From the NCBI GenBank assembly GCA_050014495.1, contig JBEKDF010000001.1:96001-160000 (forward strand): a DNA stretch of 64,000 bases, written 5' to 3'. A model generated the notes under the pieces. That model was not told the DNA's origin. It was given only the letters and a program-made list of their open reading frames with translations, and ran no database searches. Shown here in pieces: positions 43,270 through 56,849 of the stretch; position 1 is the first letter of the stretch, and every line of letters begins with the position of its first letter. The translations under genes and the position numbers were made by a program. The DNA comes from Candidatus Bathyarchaeia archaeon (GTDB taxonomy: Archaea; Thermoproteota; Bathyarchaeia; TCS64).

Positions 43270-43426
43270 TTGTTTTCTTCGATCACATCTAGTTTGAGTT
43301 CTCGTCTCTCCCTCTCATAAGGGGGAGAACAATAACATTTCAGATATGTATTAGAAAGGTTCGACTCAGTGTTCGGTTCTTTCGTAGTGATATGTTTTTT
43401 AGGTTTGGAGTATGGGTTGTTGTTGG

Positions 43427-43536
43427 GCGGGGGTACCCGAGACTGGCCAAAGGGGCGGGACTTAAGATCAGGCAGTCTCTGGTGAGAGATCCCGTAGCTC
43501 AGGCTTTCGTGGGTTCAAGTCCCACCCCCCGCACCA
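43427..43536 (+). tRNA. tRNA-Leu(TAA) with 22-nt intron at 37/38 (43467-43488)
   Basis: GCGGGGG/CCCCCGC acceptor, CGGGA-CTTAAG|A-TCCCG, long variable arm, CCA; intron forms a BHB (CTTA/TGAG helix, two 3-nt bulges). Confidence 0.93.
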
Positions 43537-43588
43537 ACCTTCGAAACCCTCAAACTAAACTTGATTTGCAAGTAGTTGGTTACAGAAT

Positions 43589-44317
43589 TTATATATCAAT
43601 TGTTAAATCAGGTGGAACACCAAAAACCTCATCCAACATCATCTTAAAATATGCTTTCGATTTTATATCCAAAAGGAATAGTTTTTTACTATATGCTTTG
43701 TCAGTGAATTCTTTTTCACATATTTTCTTATGAGATCCTTCTATGTCGTTAAAATCATATCCAAGATAATGGATTAAATATTTGTCTCGACTAGTTGAAT
43801 ATCTTATAGCCTTAATTGATTCATATTGCTGTTCTCTAAATTGTAGAACAGGATACAAGTCCATAATAAAAGGTATCATTTGATCATAAGCTGATTTTAT
43901 ATAATCATAATCGTTAGGATTTATCTGACGATATTTCGAATAAATATTGCCTAGTTTCTCCATCATGCGCTCTGACTTTAAATTATATTTATCTACATAT
44001 TCCTCCTCATATTTATTAATAATTAGATTTCTTCTTAAAGCTGAGTTTATGAATGACGAAGGACCTAATCTAATAATTCTATTATTACCAAATTTTCTAG
44101 CAACGTTAGCCTTTTCAACCTTGCTCCGGGCCTCATCATTATAGGGAACACCTGCAAGATTGAACGCCTCTTTTTGACTTCCAAACAATTCATAAAATAC
44201 CCTGGGATTTACTTTACATTTTAATTGAATTTCCTTCATGCTCGGAGTTTTCCCAAACTCACCATAATAATTTTTAATAAACTGAATTATTTTTTTCCTT
44301 TCCTCATCAGCACTCAT
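43589..44317 (-). CDS. AT-rich ORFan with N-terminal HTH resembling the homing-endonuclease-associated repeat
   Basis: GKTPS..EI.......FYELFGS..EAF..AGV; markedly AT-rich; immediately downstream of tRNA-Leu. Confidence 0.55.
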   Translation of the reverse strand: MSADEERKKIIQFIKNYYGEFGKTPSMKEIQLKCKVNPRVFYELFGSQKEAFNLAGVPYNDEARSKVEKANVARKFGNNRIIRLGPSSFINSALRRNLIINKYEEEYVDKYNLKSERMMEKLGNIYSKYRQINPNDYDYIKSAYDQMIPFIMDLYPVLQFREQQYESIKAIRYSTSRDKYLIHYLGYDFNDIEGSHKKICEKEFTDKAYSKKLFLLDIKSKAYFKMMLDEVFGVPPDLTIDI

Positions 44318-50009: not shown

Positions 50010-50028
50010 TTAATAAACGTCTTATACA
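50010..50028 (+). repeat. 19-bp direct repeat, left copy (putative attL)
   Basis: TTAATAAACGTCTTATACA, identical to 56831-56849. Confidence 0.85.
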
Positions 50029-50048: not shown

Positions 50049-50300
50049 TTATACTTCAGGCTTCTTTTCGGGTTCTTTTTTAGGTTCTTCAACCGTTTTC
50101 TTTCGAGATTTGGTGCGTGATTTGATTGCACTAACTGTAGCGTTGTCTGCTCCAGTAATTTCTGATATCTCTTTGGGCTTCAAACCAACTTCTGAAAGTA
50201 TTTCTATTTTTTGAGTTAGAGTTTTATCAGCTAGAATAGTTGCAGCATTAATCTTAATCAAGATGTCGATTTTTTCAATTAAAACGTCTATTTTTTCCAT
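50049..50300 (-). CDS. Small HTH protein
   Basis: QKIEILSEVGLKPKEISEITG....TVS HTH-like; last gene of a three-gene unit. Confidence 0.6.
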   Translation of the reverse strand: MEKIDVLIEKIDILIKINAATILADKTLTQKIEILSEVGLKPKEISEITGADNATVSAIKSRTKSRKKTVEEPKKEPEKKPEV

Positions 50301-50316
50301 TAGTGGGGTTTCGCCT

Positions 50317-50784
50317 CTATTTATGTTCAGCTTCTTTGGGCGCTCCAGATGCTTCAACTAGAGGTGTTGAGGGTGGAGTTACCTGTCCGGTAGTACTCTT
50401 TTTTGGTTTTTTAGGTTCCTTTGCATATTCGATTTTTCGCAGGTTCTTGTAGAATTTTCCTTTTGGTTTCTCAATTTCATAAATTATACCAATATCAGCC
50501 CAATTTGACGTAACTCTTGAAAATTGTCCTTGGTCGATTTTGCATTCACTTGCAATTGTCGATTGAGTGTGGTTTCCATCACATAGGTTGTAAGCCTTAA
50601 CGTAGCTATCTGGTTCCGGCTTATGATCTGTGATTATTTTACCAAGAGGTTCGTCTGTTGGGAATGCTATACGTCCAAGAAGCGTGTTTGTTGCTTCAAC
50701 ATAATTTTGATAATATTCGACGGCTGATTTTAATTCGTCTATTTTAGCTATAAGTTTGGCATTAGGATCTTTTGCAGGACTCAA
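50317..50784 (-). CDS. Winged-HTH-like protein
   Basis: AYNLCDG..TQ..IA......Q..SR....W...GII; start overlaps the upstream stop. Confidence 0.6.
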   Translation of the reverse strand: MSPAKDPNAKLIAKIDELKSAVEYYQNYVEATNTLLGRIAFPTDEPLGKIITDHKPEPDSYVKAYNLCDGNHTQSTIASECKIDQGQFSRVTSNWADIGIIYEIEKPKGKFYKNLRKIEYAKEPKKPKKSTTGQVTPPSTPLVEASGAPKEAEHK

Positions 50785-51614
50785 TTTAATGGCTCACCAT
50801 CCCATATCATACATTTAGCCTCATCTTTACTTATTTCGCCACTTAACACAGATTTAACTGTTTCAAAAAGAAACTTTGTTGTCACTAATCTTGAATTATC
50901 CAGTTGCAAGAATTTTCGTGCATGATCTGTAATTGGTTTATCTCTAGTTATAGGGTCTTTTTCCCTAAAATGATTTACAAAAAAGAATCCTTGTAACTTA
51001 TCTGGCTCTCGTTCATCTTTTGCTACTTCTGCTTTCATCCATCCATCTAATTGAAGTGCTTTAACCTTGTCTCCTTGTTTTGTCGTACCTTCGACCTCGA
51101 CTAGAGCTTTCACTCCATTATACTCAAAAGTAACGTCAGCGTAATCTCTATTTTTAATGTGATGTTCAACGTTTTCAAACTCTAACCAAACTAGTGTAAA
51201 TGCAATTGCAGCTTCTAATGGAATATCAGCAAGGTATAACAAACGTTCAAACATATCATATTGTAATACTTTTTCTTGTAGAGTTTTAATCTCGGTATCA
51301 ACTGCTGTTCTTTCAGCGAATGAATAACTACTGATCCAATCTGGCTTAGGTTGAGTCATGATAATTGACTGTAACATTAATTTTGGCAAGTAGATTTCAG
51401 GAACACCGGTCTTTCCTTCGCCACCAAACACAATGTTAAGCTCTTTTGTATCAACAAGACGAGTGAGTGCCTCATTTAACTTAGGAGTTGTAATTCCAGT
51501 TTCTTCGACAAGAACTGTCTTAGAGGGAAGTTTGTGTTTTTGAAAAATATAGTCACTAATGAAATCAAGTATTATTTGAGAATTTTCAGCAATTTCTCTC
51601 TCAGACTCGGACAA
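50781..51614 (-). CDS. wHTH plus PD-(D/E)xK-like restriction-endonuclease-fold protein
   Basis: N-terminal LPSK..L...TGI....L..AL..L; C-terminal LE.AI...L, ADV, VEVEGTTK, QL..W, NHFR..P..R. Confidence 0.6.
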   Translation of the reverse strand: MSESEREIAENSQIILDFISDYIFQKHKLPSKTVLVEETGITTPKLNEALTRLVDTKELNIVFGGEGKTGVPEIYLPKLMLQSIIMTQPKPDWISSYSFAERTAVDTEIKTLQEKVLQYDMFERLLYLADIPLEAAIAFTLVWLEFENVEHHIKNRDYADVTFEYNGVKALVEVEGTTKQGDKVKALQLDGWMKAEVAKDEREPDKLQGFFFVNHFREKDPITRDKPITDHARKFLQLDNSRLVTTKFLFETVKSVLSGEISKDEAKCMIWDGEPLN

Positions 51615-51725
51615 TTAATTCTAGCAAAACTGTAACCTGTTCAATTAAATAAAATGCTCGTTTGCGCAAGTACAAGTCAAAGAAAACATAAGTTTTCTAG
51701 AAACCTAGAAAACAAATACTAACAT

Positions 51726-52316
51726 ATGATTGATCAAACAAAATTCGAATTCATAAAAAAGAAGTATGGGCATCATGCAAGTTGGGCAATTTGGGCTGAT
51801 GTGGGAGAAAAACCAAAAGATAATGTTGGCGATCTAAGCGTTTTTGACATAAAATACAATCCAGGACTTTTACAGCAATTGAATCCCGATATAATTCTTG
51901 TTGGGCTAAATGTATCGCGTGGAATGATGGAAGTTCCACTAGCAAATTTTCACGATGCAAGATCTGTATCACAGGATTTCAAGATAAGATACGCATTGAG
52001 CGGTTCGCCCTTGTGGGGAGCATATATAACAGACATCATCAAGGATTTTGATCAAAAAGCATCTGGAAAAGTGATGAGTTATTTAAGAATGAATAAAACG
52101 TTTGAAAAAGAGAATGTAAGATTGTTTCGTGAGGAAATAAATGATTTAGGAAGTCATAATCCTATTATTATCGCTTTTGGAAAAGATGTTCACACGATTC
52201 TGACCAGAAACTTCACGAATGAATATAAGATTTTCAAAATACCTCATTACAGCAATTTCTGCAGCAAGGAAAAATATAGAGAAGAGGTGAGTTGCATTTT
52301 GCAGTATGGAAAATAA
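51726..52316 (+). CDS. Uracil-DNA-glycosylase-like fold protein
   Basis: IILVGLN.S, NFH, YITDIIK, IIAFG, IPHYS mirror UDG-superfamily motif order. Confidence 0.5.
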   Translation: MIDQTKFEFIKKKYGHHASWAIWADVGEKPKDNVGDLSVFDIKYNPGLLQQLNPDIILVGLNVSRGMMEVPLANFHDARSVSQDFKIRYALSGSPLWGAYITDIIKDFDQKASGKVMSYLRMNKTFEKENVRLFREEINDLGSHNPIIIAFGKDVHTILTRNFTNEYKIFKIPHYSNFCSKEKYREEVSCILQYGK

Positions 52317-52442: not shown

Positions 52443-52475
52443 CCATAGTCTTATCCCCCAAACCCAAACCCAAAC
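52443..52475 (-). repeat. Island motif copy A (inverted) with CCCAAA tandem
   Basis: CCATAGTCTTATCCCCCAAACCCAAACCCAAAC; reverse complement contains TTTGGGGGATAAGACTATGG. Confidence 0.75.
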
Positions 52476-52630
52476 TAATATGATACTAGACAACATAAAA
52501 CACATACCATTATTTTCCGCACATATGGGAATATATAAGCGAATATGTCGACTTTATTACCCTAAAATACGGACATAATCTTATTAACTAGTTAACATAA
52601 TCAGAAAACGTGAGAAAGGGTTTGGGTGAA

Positions 52631-52777
52631 ATGGAGTCAGTTAACGTCGAATTAATTGAGACTAAACTAGTTGAGTTGGAAAATCAGGTTGAAGAACTTA
52701 GAAGAATTATTGTGTTATCAAGGCTGAAGTGTCTTTCACTAAAATCTGATAAAAAAGAATCATGCAAAGATAAGTGA
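52631..52777 (+). CDS. Putative 48-aa coiled-coil microprotein
   Basis: MESVNVELIETKLVELENQVEELRRIIVLSRLKCLSLKSDKKESCKDK, preceded by GGGTGA (Shine-Dalgarno-like). Confidence 0.45.
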   Translation: MESVNVELIETKLVELENQVEELRRIIVLSRLKCLSLKSDKKESCKDK

Positions 52778-52790
52778 TGAGAGATCTTAT

Positions 52791-52824
52791 TTTTGGGGAT
52801 AAGGCTATGGCTCCAAACCCAAAC
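52791..52824 (+). repeat. Island motif copy B
   Basis: TTTTGGGGATAAGGCTATGGCTCCAAACCCAAAC. Confidence 0.8.
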
Positions 52825-52930
52825 AGTTTTGACTGCAGCGCGAGCATAGGATTATCTTGGTATTTTCTCATTAAGCCTATGCGAGCTAAAATATAAGTTT
52901 CAATGCTTTACAAATGAGGGGGAAGCCGGA

Positions 52931-53344
52931 TTGAGCTTACCAGCGCTAAACGAATTCTATAGTAAGTTTAAGGACGATCCAGAGGCTGCCCAAAAGGAGG
53001 CTTTCAAGATAGGTGAAGCTATGGGTCGTGCGTTCATAAAGGAGCACAATATCAAAGGCGATGACATACAAACCATGGCAGAGGTCCTCAACGCTATCGG
53101 ACAGCAGACCTCGACCTCGGCAACGGTTCAAGGCAATAGGGCGATCGTCTCCAACAGGGGCTTCTGCCCCATAATGGCTTCCTCCATATCACTCAATTTA
53201 CCATGGAAATGGCTCTGCAATAATTTTGGTTGGCCATTAATACGAGGAGTGGCTCACGCGGTTAATCCCAAAGCCAAAGTTAACGTAGGTTCCTGGCGCG
53301 CTGACGGCGATCAACTCTGCGAGCACATTTACGAGATAGAGTAG
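52931..53344 (+). CDS. V4R/ATC-hydrolase-like ligand-binding protein
   Basis: G...G, FCPI, LC, A.NP, GD..CE...E pattern. Confidence 0.6.
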   Translation: MSLPALNEFYSKFKDDPEAAQKEAFKIGEAMGRAFIKEHNIKGDDIQTMAEVLNAIGQQTSTSATVQGNRAIVSNRGFCPIMASSISLNLPWKWLCNNFGWPLIRGVAHAVNPKAKVNVGSWRADGDQLCEHIYEIE

Positions 53345-53372
53345 ATCAATCACTTACAAGCGGGATGGCGAA

Positions 53373-54659
53373 ATGACCTCTACAGAGAGAAACTCCAATC
53401 GGGCTACAAGTCTAATAAACATCACAGCCTTCTATGTTGATGGAAAAAACGAGGATTCCTCCCAGTTAGGGCACAGAATCCTAGATTCAATGGCAAGTCG
53501 TTATGGCCTGAAGCCTCCACAGCAAGATGATTTCACTCTTACGTTTACCTTCGATGGTTTTCAGTATAATATAAAACTTATTAAAAGGGGGGCCTGCGAT
53601 GTCTTCCTAATAGATGTGAGCCACTCAACTAGAGAGCCATCAAGGAGATGGAATGAGGATATCTCAGCCTATCAAGATCGTATTCAACCCCTTTTGAAGT
53701 CGTTACCGGATAACCCAACCGCAGCCTTCTCCGTCTACTCGGTCTACACAGGCAGCCGAGATGAGGCGTTGACCACCTTCAACGAGTACTCAGCTAATCA
53801 AGCCCAGCTTCATACAGGTTTAGGGGTCATCCGAGGGTGCCTTCTAGCAATGTTTGGCGATAGCCAACAAGGGGAAGGAAATCAGGTCGTCGAACGTAAC
53901 CTTCTCCTCTCACCCTTTAATTCTGTAGATGCCGAGGCCGTTAGCTCAAGGCTATTAGAGGATATCAGCTCCCTCGCCTCCATAGAGGGAGAAATTAACA
54001 GGCTTTACCGGATGCGTCAGCCCTTCTTTAAATTGATTGGTTCAGTGGAGGAAGACACTCAAAAGGCGATCGATGAGATATTCGGCAACAGCCTACTTAA
54101 CCCGAATAAACTCGAAGATATGGAGGAGTCGTTGAAGGTAATAACAGGCAGATTTTCGACATTGTCTACGATGGCTGGAGCCGTGAGACGCGACAACATC
54201 TTAGTGGAATCTAAGCTAGACGAAGTTGAAGACCTCTTTCAGCGTTGGAACGAGTCCGAGGTAGAGGGGTATCCAACCATCTTCTCGATGGAGATGATAC
54301 ACTACAAGACTCTGAGCAAACCCTTCAAGGATTTTAAAGATAGAATTGAATCTTTGAAGGTGGAGTTGGGGACCGTCTTGGATACCGTTAGAACCCGCCT
54401 CAGCATGAATCAGCAAAAACTTGGCGTCGAGGAACAGAAATCCTCGAAGGATCTATTAACCAAATTGGTGAACCTCCAAGAGGCTCTAAACAAGCTTGAA
54501 ATCCTCATCGTGGCCTTCTACATAACGGAGATGGGAGGCCTGTTCTTCGAGGTGATCGCACACGATGTTGCGCCGCTTCTGACAGTAGCCTTCATACCCT
54601 TTGCTGCGCTAACATCCTTCGGTCTTATTCATTTAATGCACAAGCAAAGAAAAGAGTAG
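53373..54659 (+). CDS. Hypothetical protein with long helical region and two C-terminal TM segments
   Basis: Coiled region 200-370; LEILIVAFYI and LLTVAFIPFAAL hydrophobic segments. Confidence 0.65.
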   Translation: MTSTERNSNRATSLINITAFYVDGKNEDSSQLGHRILDSMASRYGLKPPQQDDFTLTFTFDGFQYNIKLIKRGACDVFLIDVSHSTREPSRRWNEDISAYQDRIQPLLKSLPDNPTAAFSVYSVYTGSRDEALTTFNEYSANQAQLHTGLGVIRGCLLAMFGDSQQGEGNQVVERNLLLSPFNSVDAEAVSSRLLEDISSLASIEGEINRLYRMRQPFFKLIGSVEEDTQKAIDEIFGNSLLNPNKLEDMEESLKVITGRFSTLSTMAGAVRRDNILVESKLDEVEDLFQRWNESEVEGYPTIFSMEMIHYKTLSKPFKDFKDRIESLKVELGTVLDTVRTRLSMNQQKLGVEEQKSSKDLLTKLVNLQEALNKLEILIVAFYITEMGGLFFEVIAHDVAPLLTVAFIPFAALTSFGLIHLMHKQRKE

Positions 54660-54691
54660 CGTGCATATGCGCGCGCAACAGGTGCAAGAAC

Positions 54692-55834
54692 CTAAGCAGG
54701 TGACGTGAAGACTGATTCGTAGTAGAAGCCAGTGTTCGTGGTCACTCTGATGACGTAAGAGGTACTGTGTGCCCAAGTGAAGCCTGTCGGAGCTATGGGG
54801 CCAATCGTCATGTGGGCTCCTGTACCGATCGCATTAGTGACTGTTAATACATAAGCCTGAGATCCAGATGAGTTTACCCTAATGGAGACCGATTCTAGGG
54901 TCGCGTCGACGCTTCCCGTATTCCTAACATCTACGCCTGTAAGTTGACTGAAAGTTGAACCCCAGGTGACTGAGTCGATCCTTACCTGGGTCTGCGCCTG
55001 TGCTGATTGATCATTGTTTGAGATATAGCATCTATTGATGACGATGTCCTGAATGGGCCAGTTATCGTATGGGATCGTCTGATTGTAGACTGGGAGGTAG
55101 ATGTTTCTCGTGCCAGTCTGCACCTTGCTGATCTGGTTTACCACATCCATGCCAGATATCACCTTCCCAAACACAGCGTACCCCGGGTTTGACGCAGAGT
55201 AGTCGAGGTTTTTGCTGTCGACTAAGTTGATGTAGAACTGACTCGTAGCGCTGTTAGAGTCACTGGATCGTGCCATCGCTATGGTTCCGGCGAGGTTACT
55301 AAGGCTGTTGTTTGACTCAAGTTTAATCGGAGCATTAGTAGCCTTCTCCGTTCCGTTCACTGAGAAACCTCCACCCTGGATTACGAAGCCCAGCATCACC
55401 CTGTGGAATACTGTGCCGTCGTAGAAGCCAGCTTTTACATAACTCAAGAAATTCGTTACCGTGATTGGTGCCTTATCGTCATAAAGTTGGATCACAATAT
55501 TGCCCATGCTAGTCTCTAGCGTCACTATGGTTCCATTTGTAACAGTATTCGTAGGTCCGATTTTATTATTTGAACTAAGTTCATTTTTGAGGGCAGCGTT
55601 TTCCTGAATTAAACTCTTTAACTGATTTTATGTGGCGTTGTTGGTATTTGTTAAAACCGTTATTCTGTTATCTAGATTCTTAATCTCAGCTGTGTAATTA
55701 TCCAAGGTACGTTGGTACTCTAATCGTGTCTGTAGCTGTGAGTAATTGAAACCTATAAACGAGCCAGCTCCAAGGGAAATAATAATCATTATTAATGAAG
55801 TCACTAGAGTTTTCCCTGATATGGTGAATGGCAT
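54692..55834 (-). pseudogene. Membrane-anchored cyclophilin PPIase with C-terminal pilin-like domain, interrupted by an in-frame TAA (55628-55630)
   Basis: TM plus coiled coil in frame with APIT..NF, FYDGT.FHRV..GFVIQGG, AMAR, SATSQFYIN, YAVFGKV. Confidence 0.75.
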
Positions 55835-56027
55835 GGAACTCTAACTCGTCTAACTGTTTATATAATATATAGTTTCTAAAAACAGTATTAAAGAATCTTC
55901 TGATTTTTTAAGTGTGCACTGCGAAACATATTGTAGATATGATATACATGATACGGTGATGAAGAGAGTATAAGAGAGTAGATAAGAGATGAGAAAAAGG
56001 AAAGTGAAAGTTAGTTCGTGAATAGAT

Positions 56028-56066
56028 GGGTTTTGGGGAATAAGGCTATGGCCCCAAACCCCAAAA
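56028..56066 (+). repeat. Island motif copy C
   Basis: GGGTTTTGGGGAATAAGGCTATGGCCCCAAACCCCAAAA, self-complementary arms. Confidence 0.8.
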
Positions 56067-56082: not shown

Positions 56083-56622
56083 CTAAAATAAACTGAACTC
56101 GTTCTTCTTTTTTGTTATGCGTTTTTTCTTCTTAACTGTCTTAGCTTCCTTTTTCGCCAAAAGAGAGCTTATCTCCTTTTCAGTTATTTTTGAGCTTAAA
56201 GCATTCACATATTGCGATCTGGTTGGCGGGATAGTTTTACTAAAAAGCAAACCTTCCTCGGTCTTTCCTTTTAATGTGATATGCTTCTCCCTAGCTAATT
56301 TTTTCAACTGGGTTAATGTCAGATCCTTTAAGTTAGTTTTAACAGGATTAGATTCTTCAACTTTCCTTCCCTGCTTTTTTTGAAAGGTAGTCCACGAATC
56401 GGTTCCTTGTAATTTATTGCAAGCATAACAAAGAACTACGCTATTTTTCACACTTGTTGATCCGCCTTTTGACCAAGCGGTTTTATGCCCTATCTGCATT
56501 TCATGAAACTCTAATGATTTTCCACAGTTCTCACATTTTTTCTTAGCTCTTATCCAAAGAATTTGACGATCTCGAATACCAAGCGTTCTTTTTGTTGCTT
56601 TATCGTCTCCCCACAAAGACAT
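56083..56622 (-). CDS. HNH endonuclease (Zn-binding) with C-terminal helical HeH-like segment
   Basis: CENCG...GH..AWSKGG.T...N...LC..CN; L..LT..QLK.LA....I. Confidence 0.8.
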   Translation of the reverse strand: MSLWGDDKATKRTLGIRDRQILWIRAKKKCENCGKSLEFHEMQIGHKTAWSKGGSTSVKNSVVLCYACNKLQGTDSWTTFQKKQGRKVEESNPVKTNLKDLTLTQLKKLAREKHITLKGKTEEGLLFSKTIPPTRSQYVNALSSKITEKEISSLLAKKEAKTVKKKKRITKKKNEFSLF

Positions 56623-56640: not shown

Positions 56641-56769
56641 TTACCACTCAACCCTTGTTCTCCGCTTGGGTTTCCTTCGTGCATTGAAGCTGACAGTGCC
56701 TTCTTTAGTGTCAAAATTCACAGGTCGCTTGGTCTTGGTCTTTTTCTTCTGAGCTAAGAATGATGGCAT
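56641..56769 (-). CDS. Putative 42-aa highly basic microprotein (not in ORF track)
   Basis: MPSFLAQKKKTKTKRPVNFDTKEGTVSFNARRKPKRRTRVEW, 18 bp upstream of the HNH gene. Confidence 0.55.
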   Translation of the reverse strand: MPSFLAQKKKTKTKRPVNFDTKEGTVSFNARRKPKRRTRVEW

Positions 56770-56830
56770 AGGTTAAAATTTTCGTTAAACCTTAAATGGT
56801 TTTTGATATGCTCGCGCGCGCATTCGGATA

Positions 56831-56849
56831 TTAATAAACGTCTTATACA
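56831..56849 (+). repeat. 19-bp direct repeat, right copy (putative attR)
   Basis: TTAATAAACGTCTTATACA, identical to 50010-50028. Confidence 0.85.

Follow-up and report, generated by a model that had tools for sequence, protein, structure and literature searches.

Motif copies that partition a Bathyarchaeia genomic island are probably junctions of small PolB-less casposons

Introduction

The window analysed in this work, 64,000 nucleotides of a contig from a Candidatus Bathyarchaeia archaeon (JBEKDF010000001.1), contains a small island in which three copies of a palindrome-like motif (A, B and C) separate groups of genes. What kind of site is this motif, and how did its copies come to stand where they stand? 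A sequence-only reading had proposed a possibly undescribed cassette-recombination site or a REP-like element. Our answer, in which we have considerable though not complete confidence, is that the three copies are junction scars of small casposons lacking PolB, whose Cas1 would join the element ends to a 13-bp target that is duplicated in the process. No publication on the motif, on DUF4760 arrays of Bathyarchaeia or on the target of a PolB-less casposon was found among the matches listed, which leave most of the subscription literature uncovered.

Results and Discussion

Layout of the three copies

All three copies were located where the sequence-only reading had placed them. They are intergenic, and A is inverted (minus strand). 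B and C repeat each other in direct orientation, apart from one mismatch and two one-base indels, and the B–C interval holds three genes. The features of the island are the following.

50010..50028, plus strand: left copy of a 19-bp direct repeat, att-like; it bounds the whole island and is a system separate from the motif
about 52443..52456, minus strand: copy A core, 13-bp target site (TSD), inverted relative to B and C
52456..52475, plus strand: single arm of copy A (CCCCAAACCCAAAC...), which is a casposon-type terminus directed to B
52622..52777, plus strand: 51-codon ORF between A and B, with motif-free homologue loci in G002:C23, G012:C6 and G000:C7
52790..52797, plus strand: left arm of copy B, degenerate
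about 52797..52810, plus strand: copy B core, 13-bp target site
52811..52824, plus strand: right arm of copy B, a casposon-type terminus, pointing into the B–C block
52931..53344, plus strand: cargo gene 1, 137 aa, no Pfam match
53373..54659, plus strand: cargo gene 2, 428 aa, hydrophobic C-terminus; its predicted fold resembles DUF3422 proteins
54692..55834, minus strand: cargo gene 3, a PPIase of the cyclophilin type; hydrophobic segment at the N-terminus, in-frame TAA at codon 69
55940..56038, plus strand: left arm and subterminal sequence of copy C, homologous to the cas1-downstream end of the casposons L085/L086 and G012:C4
about 56038..56051, plus strand: copy C core, 13-bp target site, repeating the B core in direct orientation (12/13)
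56052..56066, plus strand: right arm of copy C, another terminus of the casposon type, facing the HNH gene
56083..56622, minus strand: HNH nuclease ORF
56831..56849, plus strand: right copy of the 19-bp direct repeat

The core sequence of the window copies is GATAAG[G/A]CTATGG (13 bp). The B–C block has, as had been noted before, a GC content (0.453) nearer to that of the host part of the window (0.509) than its flanks have (0.35 and 0.375). The claim that every copy carries self-complementary arms did not survive: copy A has an arm on one side of the core only, and no fold was predicted for it (0 kcal/mol), whereas B and C can form hairpins, but fold no better than shuffled sequences (z -0.7 and -1.7).

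Two generic readings of the motif were rejected. The copies are not T-rich, and those bearing arms have no orientation bias to gene ends, so the terminator function named in the sequence-only reading as a possible refutation did not materialize. Nor is there an orientation bias of the arm-bearing copies to gene starts, which speaks against a generic promoter.

The arms as probable termini of elements encoding a solo Cas1

The arm motif (CCCCAAACCCAAAC) was present at 43 of the 80 loci of a solo-Cas1 family in Bathyarchaeia. Arm copies facing inward numbered 31 on the downstream and 23 on the upstream sides, those facing outward 5 and 6. Arm density was 13.6 per 100 kb at these loci, while 112 kb of genome G021 and 30 kb of CRISPR-cas1 loci contained none. 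Termini facing inward at both ends occurred at 14/80 loci, and long matching inner terminal inverted repeats (TIRs) were seen in seven of 13 both-end elements. It could be argued that the arms are filler DNA left by a repair polymerase at breaks beside the core, comparable to the GC runs found at junctions in this genome; the arms are indeed of low complexity, and CA or GC runs can stand in the same position instead. This origin is very improbable, since the arms run on into element-specific inverted repeats of 60-130 bp and face inward around cas1.

In G000, 32 of 50 arm-like sequences abut a core, as compared to 409 of 20000 random positions. Five of seven solo-cas1 pieces in this genome lie within 1.6 kb of an arm-core junction (a threshold picked after seeing the data), versus 51/718 low-GC ORFs and 0/12 tyrosine recombinases; even within 6 kb of the junctions no tyrosine integrase was found (0/12). 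Ends of IS110 or of IS5/IS1182-like elements were also considered and discarded, their copies not being tied to the motif. The core differs between lineages, and the arms remain at the ends of the cas1 units. A strict two-arm pattern was found in about 4 of 301 genomes of the class, a count from a pattern too strict to give the range of the motif. Viral contigs contained neither the motif nor a relative of the Cas1.

Direct repeats of 13 bp flank complete elements

Among 12 distinct both-end elements, seven are flanked, outside the arms, by a perfect (13/13) direct repeat, one is ambiguous and four have inverted cores, it being understood that for quasi-palindromic cores the call between direct and inverted hinges on one base. 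Of five metagenome elements with clearly non-palindromic cores, two are direct and three inverted. Inverted cores, as in the four elements, in G011:C77 and in the A–B pair of the window, would not be expected from one simple insertion. An element of the same genus (G016:C13), consisting of a primase-like gene, cas1 and cargo, lies between two direct copies of the window's own core, and its left core copy sits within a repeat of the array type described below. Further end-to-end units with direct cores were found in G012, G007, G018 and G000:C34. The casposon targets were reconstructed from flanks, and an empty site was found for none of the single casposon insertions.

The window itself can be linked to these elements through copy C. 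About 120 bp of this copy (55944-56061) match the end of the L085/L086 elements (78%, E 4e-21), a score reached by none of 60 shuffles, and the same stretch also matches the cas1-downstream end in G012.

These results bear on the suggestion that the motif is a REP-like hairpin of a HUH (Y1) transposase, or a hairpin att site, unlinked to Cas1. B and C could form hairpins, and arm-core-arm copies recur in several genomes. On the other hand, copy A and many other copies are one-armed, the copies that fold do so no better than shuffles, the core varies by lineage while the cas1 units keep the arms at their ends, and Y1 transposase (PF01797) was not found in G000 (96% complete), although it was found in 6/14 controls. 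The arms at cas1 loci, the homology of the copy C end and the G016:C13 element largely refute this suggestion, and we give it hardly any weight.

In the casposon explanation Cas1 would catalyse the joining of the element ends to the 13-bp target, with duplication of the target. Two ends on one target would produce the palindromic look of B and C, and a lone end the look of A. An end joined to the target would recreate the target, so that elements could pile up at such sites. The B–C block may be a decayed or cargo-only unit between two ends. In another genome a homologue of the B–C gene pair is flanked by two direct motif copies; in G016 the pair is present with no motif nearby, which counts against this explanation. 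Only one of the five window arms matched a known element end, the inner sequence of the copy A arm matched none of the element ends compared, and the inner sequences of the B right arm and the C left arm do not match one another; movement of B–C as one unit is thus no more than a possibility. The proposed search for a B–C deletion was negative: neither a B–C nor an A–B joint was seen in contigs of 8 of the 24 runs listed, contigs being prone to drop rare variants.

Gene content and classification of the elements

The elements are 4.0-9.9 kb in size and have a conserved layout: primase-like gene, small ORF, in some cases an MCM-like ATPase, HTH, cas1. The primase-like ORF, present in 12/13 both-end elements, has a weak AEP-like Pfam match. 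AEP-type proteins were also the best matches of its predicted fold, at a middling level (best Z 8.1, rmsd 4.1), and Foldseek returned no match at E <= 0.001. The ATPase has a predicted MCM-like fold. These two proteins may replicate the element. No PolB motif was detected in 592 ORFs of the 80 loci, and the 13 both-end elements contain no internal ORF over 511 aa.

Full-length Cas1 is about 340-370 aa; Pfam shows only Cas_Cas1, with no C-terminal HTH (a family 2 trait). The E-H-E catalytic motifs are kept in four of five aligned sequences, and by a crude pattern the catalytic residues are intact in 57/73 full-length copies. The closest sequence match in the PDB was 4N06 (104.8 bits), which scored above 6OPM (69.4 bits). 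No CRISPR arrays were detected in the 80 loci (as a control, arrays were detected in 3/9 CRISPR-cas1 loci), and neither Cas2 nor a CRISPR array was found in G000. Features that mark casposons, a Cas1 unlinked to CRISPR or cas2, catalytic residues, TIRs and a TSD, were found. The motif thus most likely belongs to a known kind of site, a casposon TSD with terminal repeats, and not to an undescribed one.

PolB-less casposons were proposed in 2022 as 'family 5' (Salgado et al., PMC9755687), a clade whose members are over 50% identical; the description there comprises six sequences with hypothetical neighbours, called non-self-replicating. The elements studied here share with it the solo Cas1 with intact catalytic residues, the absence of a C-terminal HTH, the general absence of PolB, and TIRs in some members. 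Four of five family 5 sequences taken from the supplement have long motifs in common with this Cas1, as judged by eye, e.g. MEKGC towards the N-terminal and ETLINEEA towards the C-terminal end. The passages of PMC9755687 that describe family 5 give no target site, TSD or primase, whereas here there are a 13-bp TSD, a layout with a primase-like gene, hexamer-repeat termini and a target of about 200 copies.

As far as the cited descriptions go, casposons of families 1-4 are similar in having Cas1 as the sole conserved integrase, TIRs and a site preference with a leader-side motif. They also form tandem insertions with a shared TSD, leave solo TIRs as remnants and can target the 3' ends of genes, such as that of the aEF-2 gene in family 1 (PMC4046053, PMC4779613, PMC6614799). 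The size of the TSD is also similar (median 15, and 14-15 bp in vitro; PMC4046053, PMC4779613, PMC6614799). The present elements differ from them in lacking PolB, in being smaller and in having a primase-like gene instead. They amount to a compact casposon without PolB, with a predicted primase-helicase module, a probable site-specific Cas1 integrase and an AT-rich 13-bp target.

The target is part of a repeat that delimits gene cassettes

The 12-bp core occurs in 149 exact copies in this genome (0.76 expected; reversed control 0). Most of these have no arms and lie inside a sharply bounded 30-bp repeat (TCAGGTGGAAGTGAGGATAAGGCTATTGAG) of about 200 copies (218 sites), in which a 14-bp left half is combined with the core and the casposon target is the 3' half. 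The repeat, which would be older than the insertions, delimits co-oriented gene cassettes throughout the genome, 124 of them, mostly 370-1300 bp and up to 3.6 kb long, 127 kb in all. It explains a share of the accessory gene content in peat Bathyarchaeia. The genome contains 107 DUF4760-like genes. Neighbouring repeat copies are co-oriented in 134/157 cases, and flanks have been exchanged at the repeat, with junctions falling inside it. The boundary check recommended in the sequence-only reading thus came out positive, the copies clustering at borders of accessory genes. Its idea of a cassette site holds to this extent, but the site itself is most likely a TSD bordered by terminal repeats of casposons. 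In the descriptions cited above, casposons occupy one to three sites per genome, as opposed to the multicopy, array-delimiting repeat found here. Elements, solo ends and arm-less repeats coexist in one genome, with a regularly repeated unit of CRISPR length as the casposon target.

The stop codon of 22 out of 60 nearby DUF4760 genes lies within the repeat, which in this way provides stop codons for many upstream genes, and the median distance from the core to the DUF4760 start is 34 nt, a promoter distance, so the repeat may also serve as promoter of the next gene. The likeliest process behind growth and shuffling of the arm-less arrays is exchange within the 30-bp repeat. Three origins of this arrangement can be considered.

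The repeat could be the conserved promoter of a duplicated gene family, subject to ordinary duplication, deletion and homologous exchange, with casposons merely exploiting it as a target. The core stands 34 nt upstream of DUF4760 starts at 66/139 plain array sites, and variants, as well as the copies in G021, read like TATA boxes at the same position. G021, which consists of one contig, has repeats around DUF4760 and other genes, without this Cas1 and without an arm. This Cas1 had no match in G005 either, although 13 exact cores were counted there; both genomes are also points against the casposon explanation. (One backward-pattern control gives no information, the pattern reading the same when reversed.) A promoter does not readily explain why the repeat is retained at gene 3' ends with no following gene and around unrelated enzymes, why CCTTATC is rare upstream of other genes (3/425), or why not one of the 12 near-identical flank pairs has both flanks in common. 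We put this origin at slightly less than an even chance.

Integrons carry arrays of cassettes with attC sites, which have RYYYAAC/GTTRRRY ends, a bottom-strand hairpin and often the stop codon of the cassette, and their IntI has an extra domain. The arrays described here resemble them in their co-oriented single-gene cassettes with one repeat each, the stop codons within the site, the accessory enzymes and the shuffled order. A tyrosine recombinase acting on the 30-bp repeats would fit with the finding that the arrays in G002:C34 and G000:C69 begin alike, with one zinc-ribbon tyrosine integrase, spacer and first repeat in common; the integrase is divergent to the array and the first cassettes differ. 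Linkage in 12 pairs gives a hint of a junction, which would fall between core positions 8 and 12. However, this integrase ends beside a tRNA-like sequence in G002, like ordinary island integrases, it is broken in G000, and the nearest tyrosine recombinases at other arrays are of other families. The repeat consensus lacks GTTRRRY ends, as had been observed before, no hairpin was found, and the arm-bearing copies are most likely transposon ends. We consider an integron-like mechanism rather unlikely.

CRISPR arrays have short spacers, of about 20-60 bp, with cas genes next to the array. Here a 30-bp co-oriented repeat contains the site used by a Cas1-family element, and its ends, we presume, resemble type III CRISPR repeats, for which Rfam gave no support. 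It differs in having genes as spacers, no Cas2, no CRISPR match in Rfam and a duplication of 13 bp. The Cas1 might nevertheless capture gene-sized DNA without terminal repeats and duplicate the repeat, which would make a CRISPR-like array with genes as spacers. The length, sharp bounds and co-orientation of the repeat, the junctions inside it and the presence of the casposon target within it are compatible with such capture. The A. boonei casposase requires the leader as far as -15 together with the beginning of the TSD (PMC6614799), which, as described, resembles the 14-bp left half plus core. Against capture, the duplication at casposon insertions spans only about 13 bp instead of 30, the arrays of G021 occur without a match to this Cas1, and the left half resembles the cassette gene's own 5' region. 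Capture of this kind is therefore doubtful, and so, to the same degree, is the view that the casposase built the arrays, with a repeat that is stop codon, promoter and next target at once, and so gave rise to over 100 kb of shuffled cassettes in a single genome. If true, such arrays would stand between casposon, integron and CRISPR array as a still living intermediate. The route from casposon ends or targets to CRISPR repeats is, in the account of PMC4779613, an open question. The target repeat may link transposons, gene-cassette arrays and CRISPR arrays, and the end, leader, 13-bp core and lineage variants are defined substrates for asking whether a casposase builds arrays.

The island and its cargo

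The motif cluster is nested in a 6.8-kb island, which likely entered via a tyrosine integrase at a different site, the 19-bp repeat. The corresponding thiL / CoA-transferase site is empty in G009, G012 and G005, with a single copy of the repeat, and in G002 it is occupied by a tyrosine integrase gene. The 19-bp sequence was dismissed as a dif/Xer site: it is not conserved in single copy across relatives (6/41 genomes), is att-like and lies at a promoter region. The island contains no cas1, Rfam found no match in it or in five array loci, and PADLOC reported nothing but an HNH-domain match.

The Atlas neighbours of cargo gene 1 are archaeal and named hypothetical or methanogen-output-domain-like, which we regard as a lead only. 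Cargo genes 1 and 2 co-occur in relatives. A 60-bp stretch on the upstream side of the HNH ORF (56748-56807) recurs directly after cas1 in a G016 casposon (93%).

Copies of the motif and genome-wide distribution of its core

The three motif copies lie where the sequence-only reading had placed them, all in intergenic DNA, with their cores at

52443-52455, inverted: copy A
52798-52810: copy B
56039-56051: copy C

As had also been seen, B and C are direct repeats that differ by one mismatch and two 1-base indels, and A is inverted to them. The self-complementary arms ascribed to every copy did not hold for A, which has a single arm and does not fold, and the folding of B and C was at the level of shuffled sequence.

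The genome-wide search that the same reading had suggested gave 149 exact copies of the core (GGATAAG[G/A]CTAT) in the host genome, G000, as against 0.76 expected and none in the reversed control. There are 5-81 copies in 8 of 17 genomes of the genus, and 0-2 in the other nine and in 23 of 23 genomes searched outside it. A matrix scan of G000 at the loosest threshold yielded 258 matches (33 on reversed sequence), 218 of which were retained, 40 weak matches without a recognisable flank being left out. The left flank was CAGGTGGAAGTGA at 158 of the 218 sites and (TTTGGG)n, GT-rich or other sequence at the rest, and in G000 left and right flanks combine in every way. Arm-like sequences in G000 abut a core in 32 of 50 cases, compared with 2% of random positions.

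Arms as casposon ends, core as duplicated target

The arms are casposon ends. Six Pfam Cas1 matches were found in G000; Cas2 and a CRISPR array were looked for there and neither was found. Of 7 cas1 pieces, 5 have an arm-core junction no more than 1.6 kb away, a threshold set after the data had been seen; the same is true of 51 among 718 ORFs of low GC content and of none of 12 tyrosine recombinases. A metagenome scan for this solo-Cas1 family returned 392 relatives, of which the best 80 (70 clusters at 97% identity) were analysed. The arm motif was present in 43 of these 80 loci and was not found in the control DNA. It points inward at 31 downstream and 23 upstream sides, outward at 5 downstream and 6 upstream sides, and 14 loci have it at both ends. 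The both-end units, 13 after one duplicate was dropped, measure 4.0-9.9 kb and encode a small primase-like protein (12 of 13) and an ATPase (4 of 13); seven have inner terminal inverted repeats (TIRs) of 60-130 bp. For the primase-like protein, Pfam gives a weak AEP-like match and fold comparison gives middling matches to AEP-type enzymes, the structure model of the ATPase matches MCM AAA+ domains, and this Cas1 keeps its catalytic motifs and lacks the C-terminal HTH. None of the 592 ORFs from the best 80 of the 392 loci contained a PolB motif. The 20-bp two-arm pattern was found in GTDB at 12 loci, all 12 from Bathyarchaeota or Bathyarchaeia, which places the host among the Bathyarchaeia.

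The core is a duplicated target. After removal of two duplicates there were 12 distinct elements, and beyond their arms seven have a perfect 13-bp direct repeat, one an ambiguous repeat and four an inverted one; the exact length of the duplication is 13-15 bp, depending on how runs of G and C are assigned. The core varies by lineage (GTTAAAATTTAAC, GGTAAACTTTACC, GATAAAATTATGG and others) and the arm is constant. In G016:C13, from the same genus, a primase-like gene, cas1 and cargo lie between two direct copies of the same core as in the window (11 of 13 positions identical), the left one within the array-type repeat. Units with direct cores and without Cas1 occur in G012, G007, G018 and G000:C34; in the last, the inner TIRs match over at least 76 bp, and the unit is inserted just 3' of a DUF4760 stop codon. 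Among the 218 G000 sites, TG follows the core at 1 of 33 with a right arm and at 97 of 185 without, as if the commonest array variant (TG after the core) were rarely targeted; one targeted TG site occurs in G007.

Judged by sequence similarity, the link between the window and casposon ends is direct for copy C. Positions 55944-56061 match the end downstream of cas1 in loci L085/L086 (78%, E 4e-21), a score reached by 0 of 60 shuffles, and the copy C end also matches the end downstream of cas1 in G012:C4 (76.5% over 132 nt). The remaining four window arms had no match among the element ends compared.

Proposed mechanism

It is observed that arms end cas1 units, that these are bordered by 13-bp direct repeats, that copy C is homologous to such an end, that insertion into the array repeat occurs, and that flanks are exchanged at the repeat. 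The earlier view of the copies as borders of cassettes stood as far as the exchange of flanks is concerned, but not as to their nature, which is most likely that of a casposon target with ends. By analogy with known casposases, as described in PMC6614799, PMC4046053 and PMC4779613, Cas1 would join both 3' ends at staggered positions, with the G-rich left half of the repeat as leader. An end plus core could be reused as a target, giving shared-target junctions like B and C, and inverted pairs would arise by later rearrangement between ends or cores. Replication is predicted to depend on the primase-like and MCM-like proteins.

Relation to known casposons

The element probably works like a casposon, and the casposon features tested were found, PolB excepted. 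PolB is a feature of casposon families 1-4 and is absent here, therefore the element is not a member of these families. Its most likely place is in the PolB-less group that Salgado et al. (2022; PMC9755687) call 'family 5', as suggested by motifs compared by eye in five supplement sequences. Casposons without PolB had thus been proposed before; the contribution of this locus is to show which sequence is the target, that the target is amplified across the genome, and that it overlaps a stop codon and a likely promoter. In the literature covered, which was incomplete, we found nothing on the motif, on its role as a target or on arrays of DUF4760 genes.

Arm-less cassette arrays

Most core sites are part of a sharply bounded 30-bp repeat, the core forming its 3' half, that delimits arm-less gene cassettes. 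Neighbouring repeat pairs are co-oriented in 134 of 157 cases, and their spacing peaks at 550-680 bp. DUF4760 has 74 Pfam matches in G000, and a local profile detects 107 ORFs, in tandem arrays (e.g. C72, C74, C75, C77, C50, C24, C53); the repeat is upstream of 71 of them (median 34 nt) and downstream of 65. Unrelated enzymes are also located between repeats. DUF4760 is also expanded in other members of the family, several genomes in all; a search of 16 genomes from outside the family did not find it. A site lies near the stop codon of 60 DUF4760 genes. In 22 of these the codon sits at one fixed place within the core, and the stop offered by a second frame is used in none; the common GATTAT variant keeps a stop. 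Among 273 sites (G000 and relatives' loci), 12 pairs have one flank at least 85% identical and no pair has both. There is a hint in these sequences, from few informative positions and small numbers, that the junction may lie between core positions 8 and 12.

Among the explanations of these arrays we rank first a duplication anchored at the promoter, with exchange inside the repeat, and put its probability a little short of even. Capture of the cassettes by Cas1 seems unlikely: in the one-contig genome G021, from a different genus, DUF4760 and other genes are flanked by a diverged form of the repeat (10 copies), with neither arm nor match to this Cas1 found, and G005 likewise has no match. Four C-terminal remnants of this Cas1 are present in G011. 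Shuffling by a tyrosine recombinase would agree with the finding that the same integrase heads arrays in G002:C34 and G000:C69 with different first cassettes; however, this integrase looks like the tRNA-site island type, and we consider such shuffling as unlikely as capture by Cas1.

The integrase (L064:12146-13914, in G002:C34, and G000:C69:1142-2613) has a zinc ribbon and a conserved upstream spacer with repeated AAGAGTATC / GATACTCT boxes, after which the first array repeat begins; many array repeats likewise open with GAGTATC. A mini-cassette that lacks a gene, 80-100 bp long and enclosed by two repeats (about 20 clear copies of 38 matches), contains a dyad, ATAAG-ATGAGG-CTTAT, resembling tyrosine-recombinase sites:

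G000 C75:3803-3899
G000 C63:9705
G000 C85:3547
G000 C7:91974
L039:2261-2342
L039:2922-3003

The B-C block and the low-GC island

The B-C block holds three genes and is, as had been noted, more host-like than its flanks (GC 0.453 vs 0.35 and 0.375; host part of the window, 0.509). Pieces from sequencing runs X3 and X4 connect B with C, confirming the assembly, and no deletion joint across the block was found in the contigs searched, which came from 8 of 24 listed runs. The layout of B-C is formally target - end ... end - target; the cores of A and B are inverted to each other, an arrangement also seen in L085 and G011:C77. Genes homologous to the B-C pair are found between two arm-core-arm copies in direct orientation (G002:C44), within an array (G002:C23), adjoining a core (G009:C105), close to an arm remnant (G000:C7), or with the motif absent nearby (G016:C19). 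Because of these mixed settings, and with one arm matched, transfer of the block as a single unit is only plausible.

The cyclophilin gene of the block (54692-55834) has an in-frame TAA at codon 69, between the hydrophobic N-terminal part and the catalytic domain, and a 79% identical paralogue 14 kb off on C1. Runs alternating between GC and CA mark the places where fragments of cas1, primase-like and integrase genes break off, and they also join unrelated gene halves:

G000 C18:49632
G000 C79:2289-2746
G000 C24:45821
G000 C69:1142
window 54660-54680
window 56810-56822

A perfect 19-bp direct repeat (50010-50028 and 56831-56849) borders the low-GC island. In G009, G012 and G005, thiL directly neighbours the CoA-transferase gene, and a single 19-bp copy lies in between; the island was therefore inserted at a site of its own, distinct from the motif, and copies A, B and C are nested inside it. 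In G002 the thiL / CoA-transferase site is occupied by a tyrosine integrase gene. The att-like repeat spans the TATA-like box in the gap between these two genes, thiL and CoA-transferase, and a third copy, whose inner flank is the same, is on another contig (G000:C55:12067; L005).

Within the island, 50049-52316 contains three co-oriented ORFs (102, 155 and 277 aa) and a 196-aa ORF, which has different flanks in run X14; no Pfam or PADLOC family was found for these ORFs. Elsewhere in the window, an AT-rich ORF with a weak HNH-repeat-like match (43392-44317) adjoins a tRNA-like sequence not called by ARAGORN; the corresponding place in G002, after rpoB, is occupied by the integrase-headed array.
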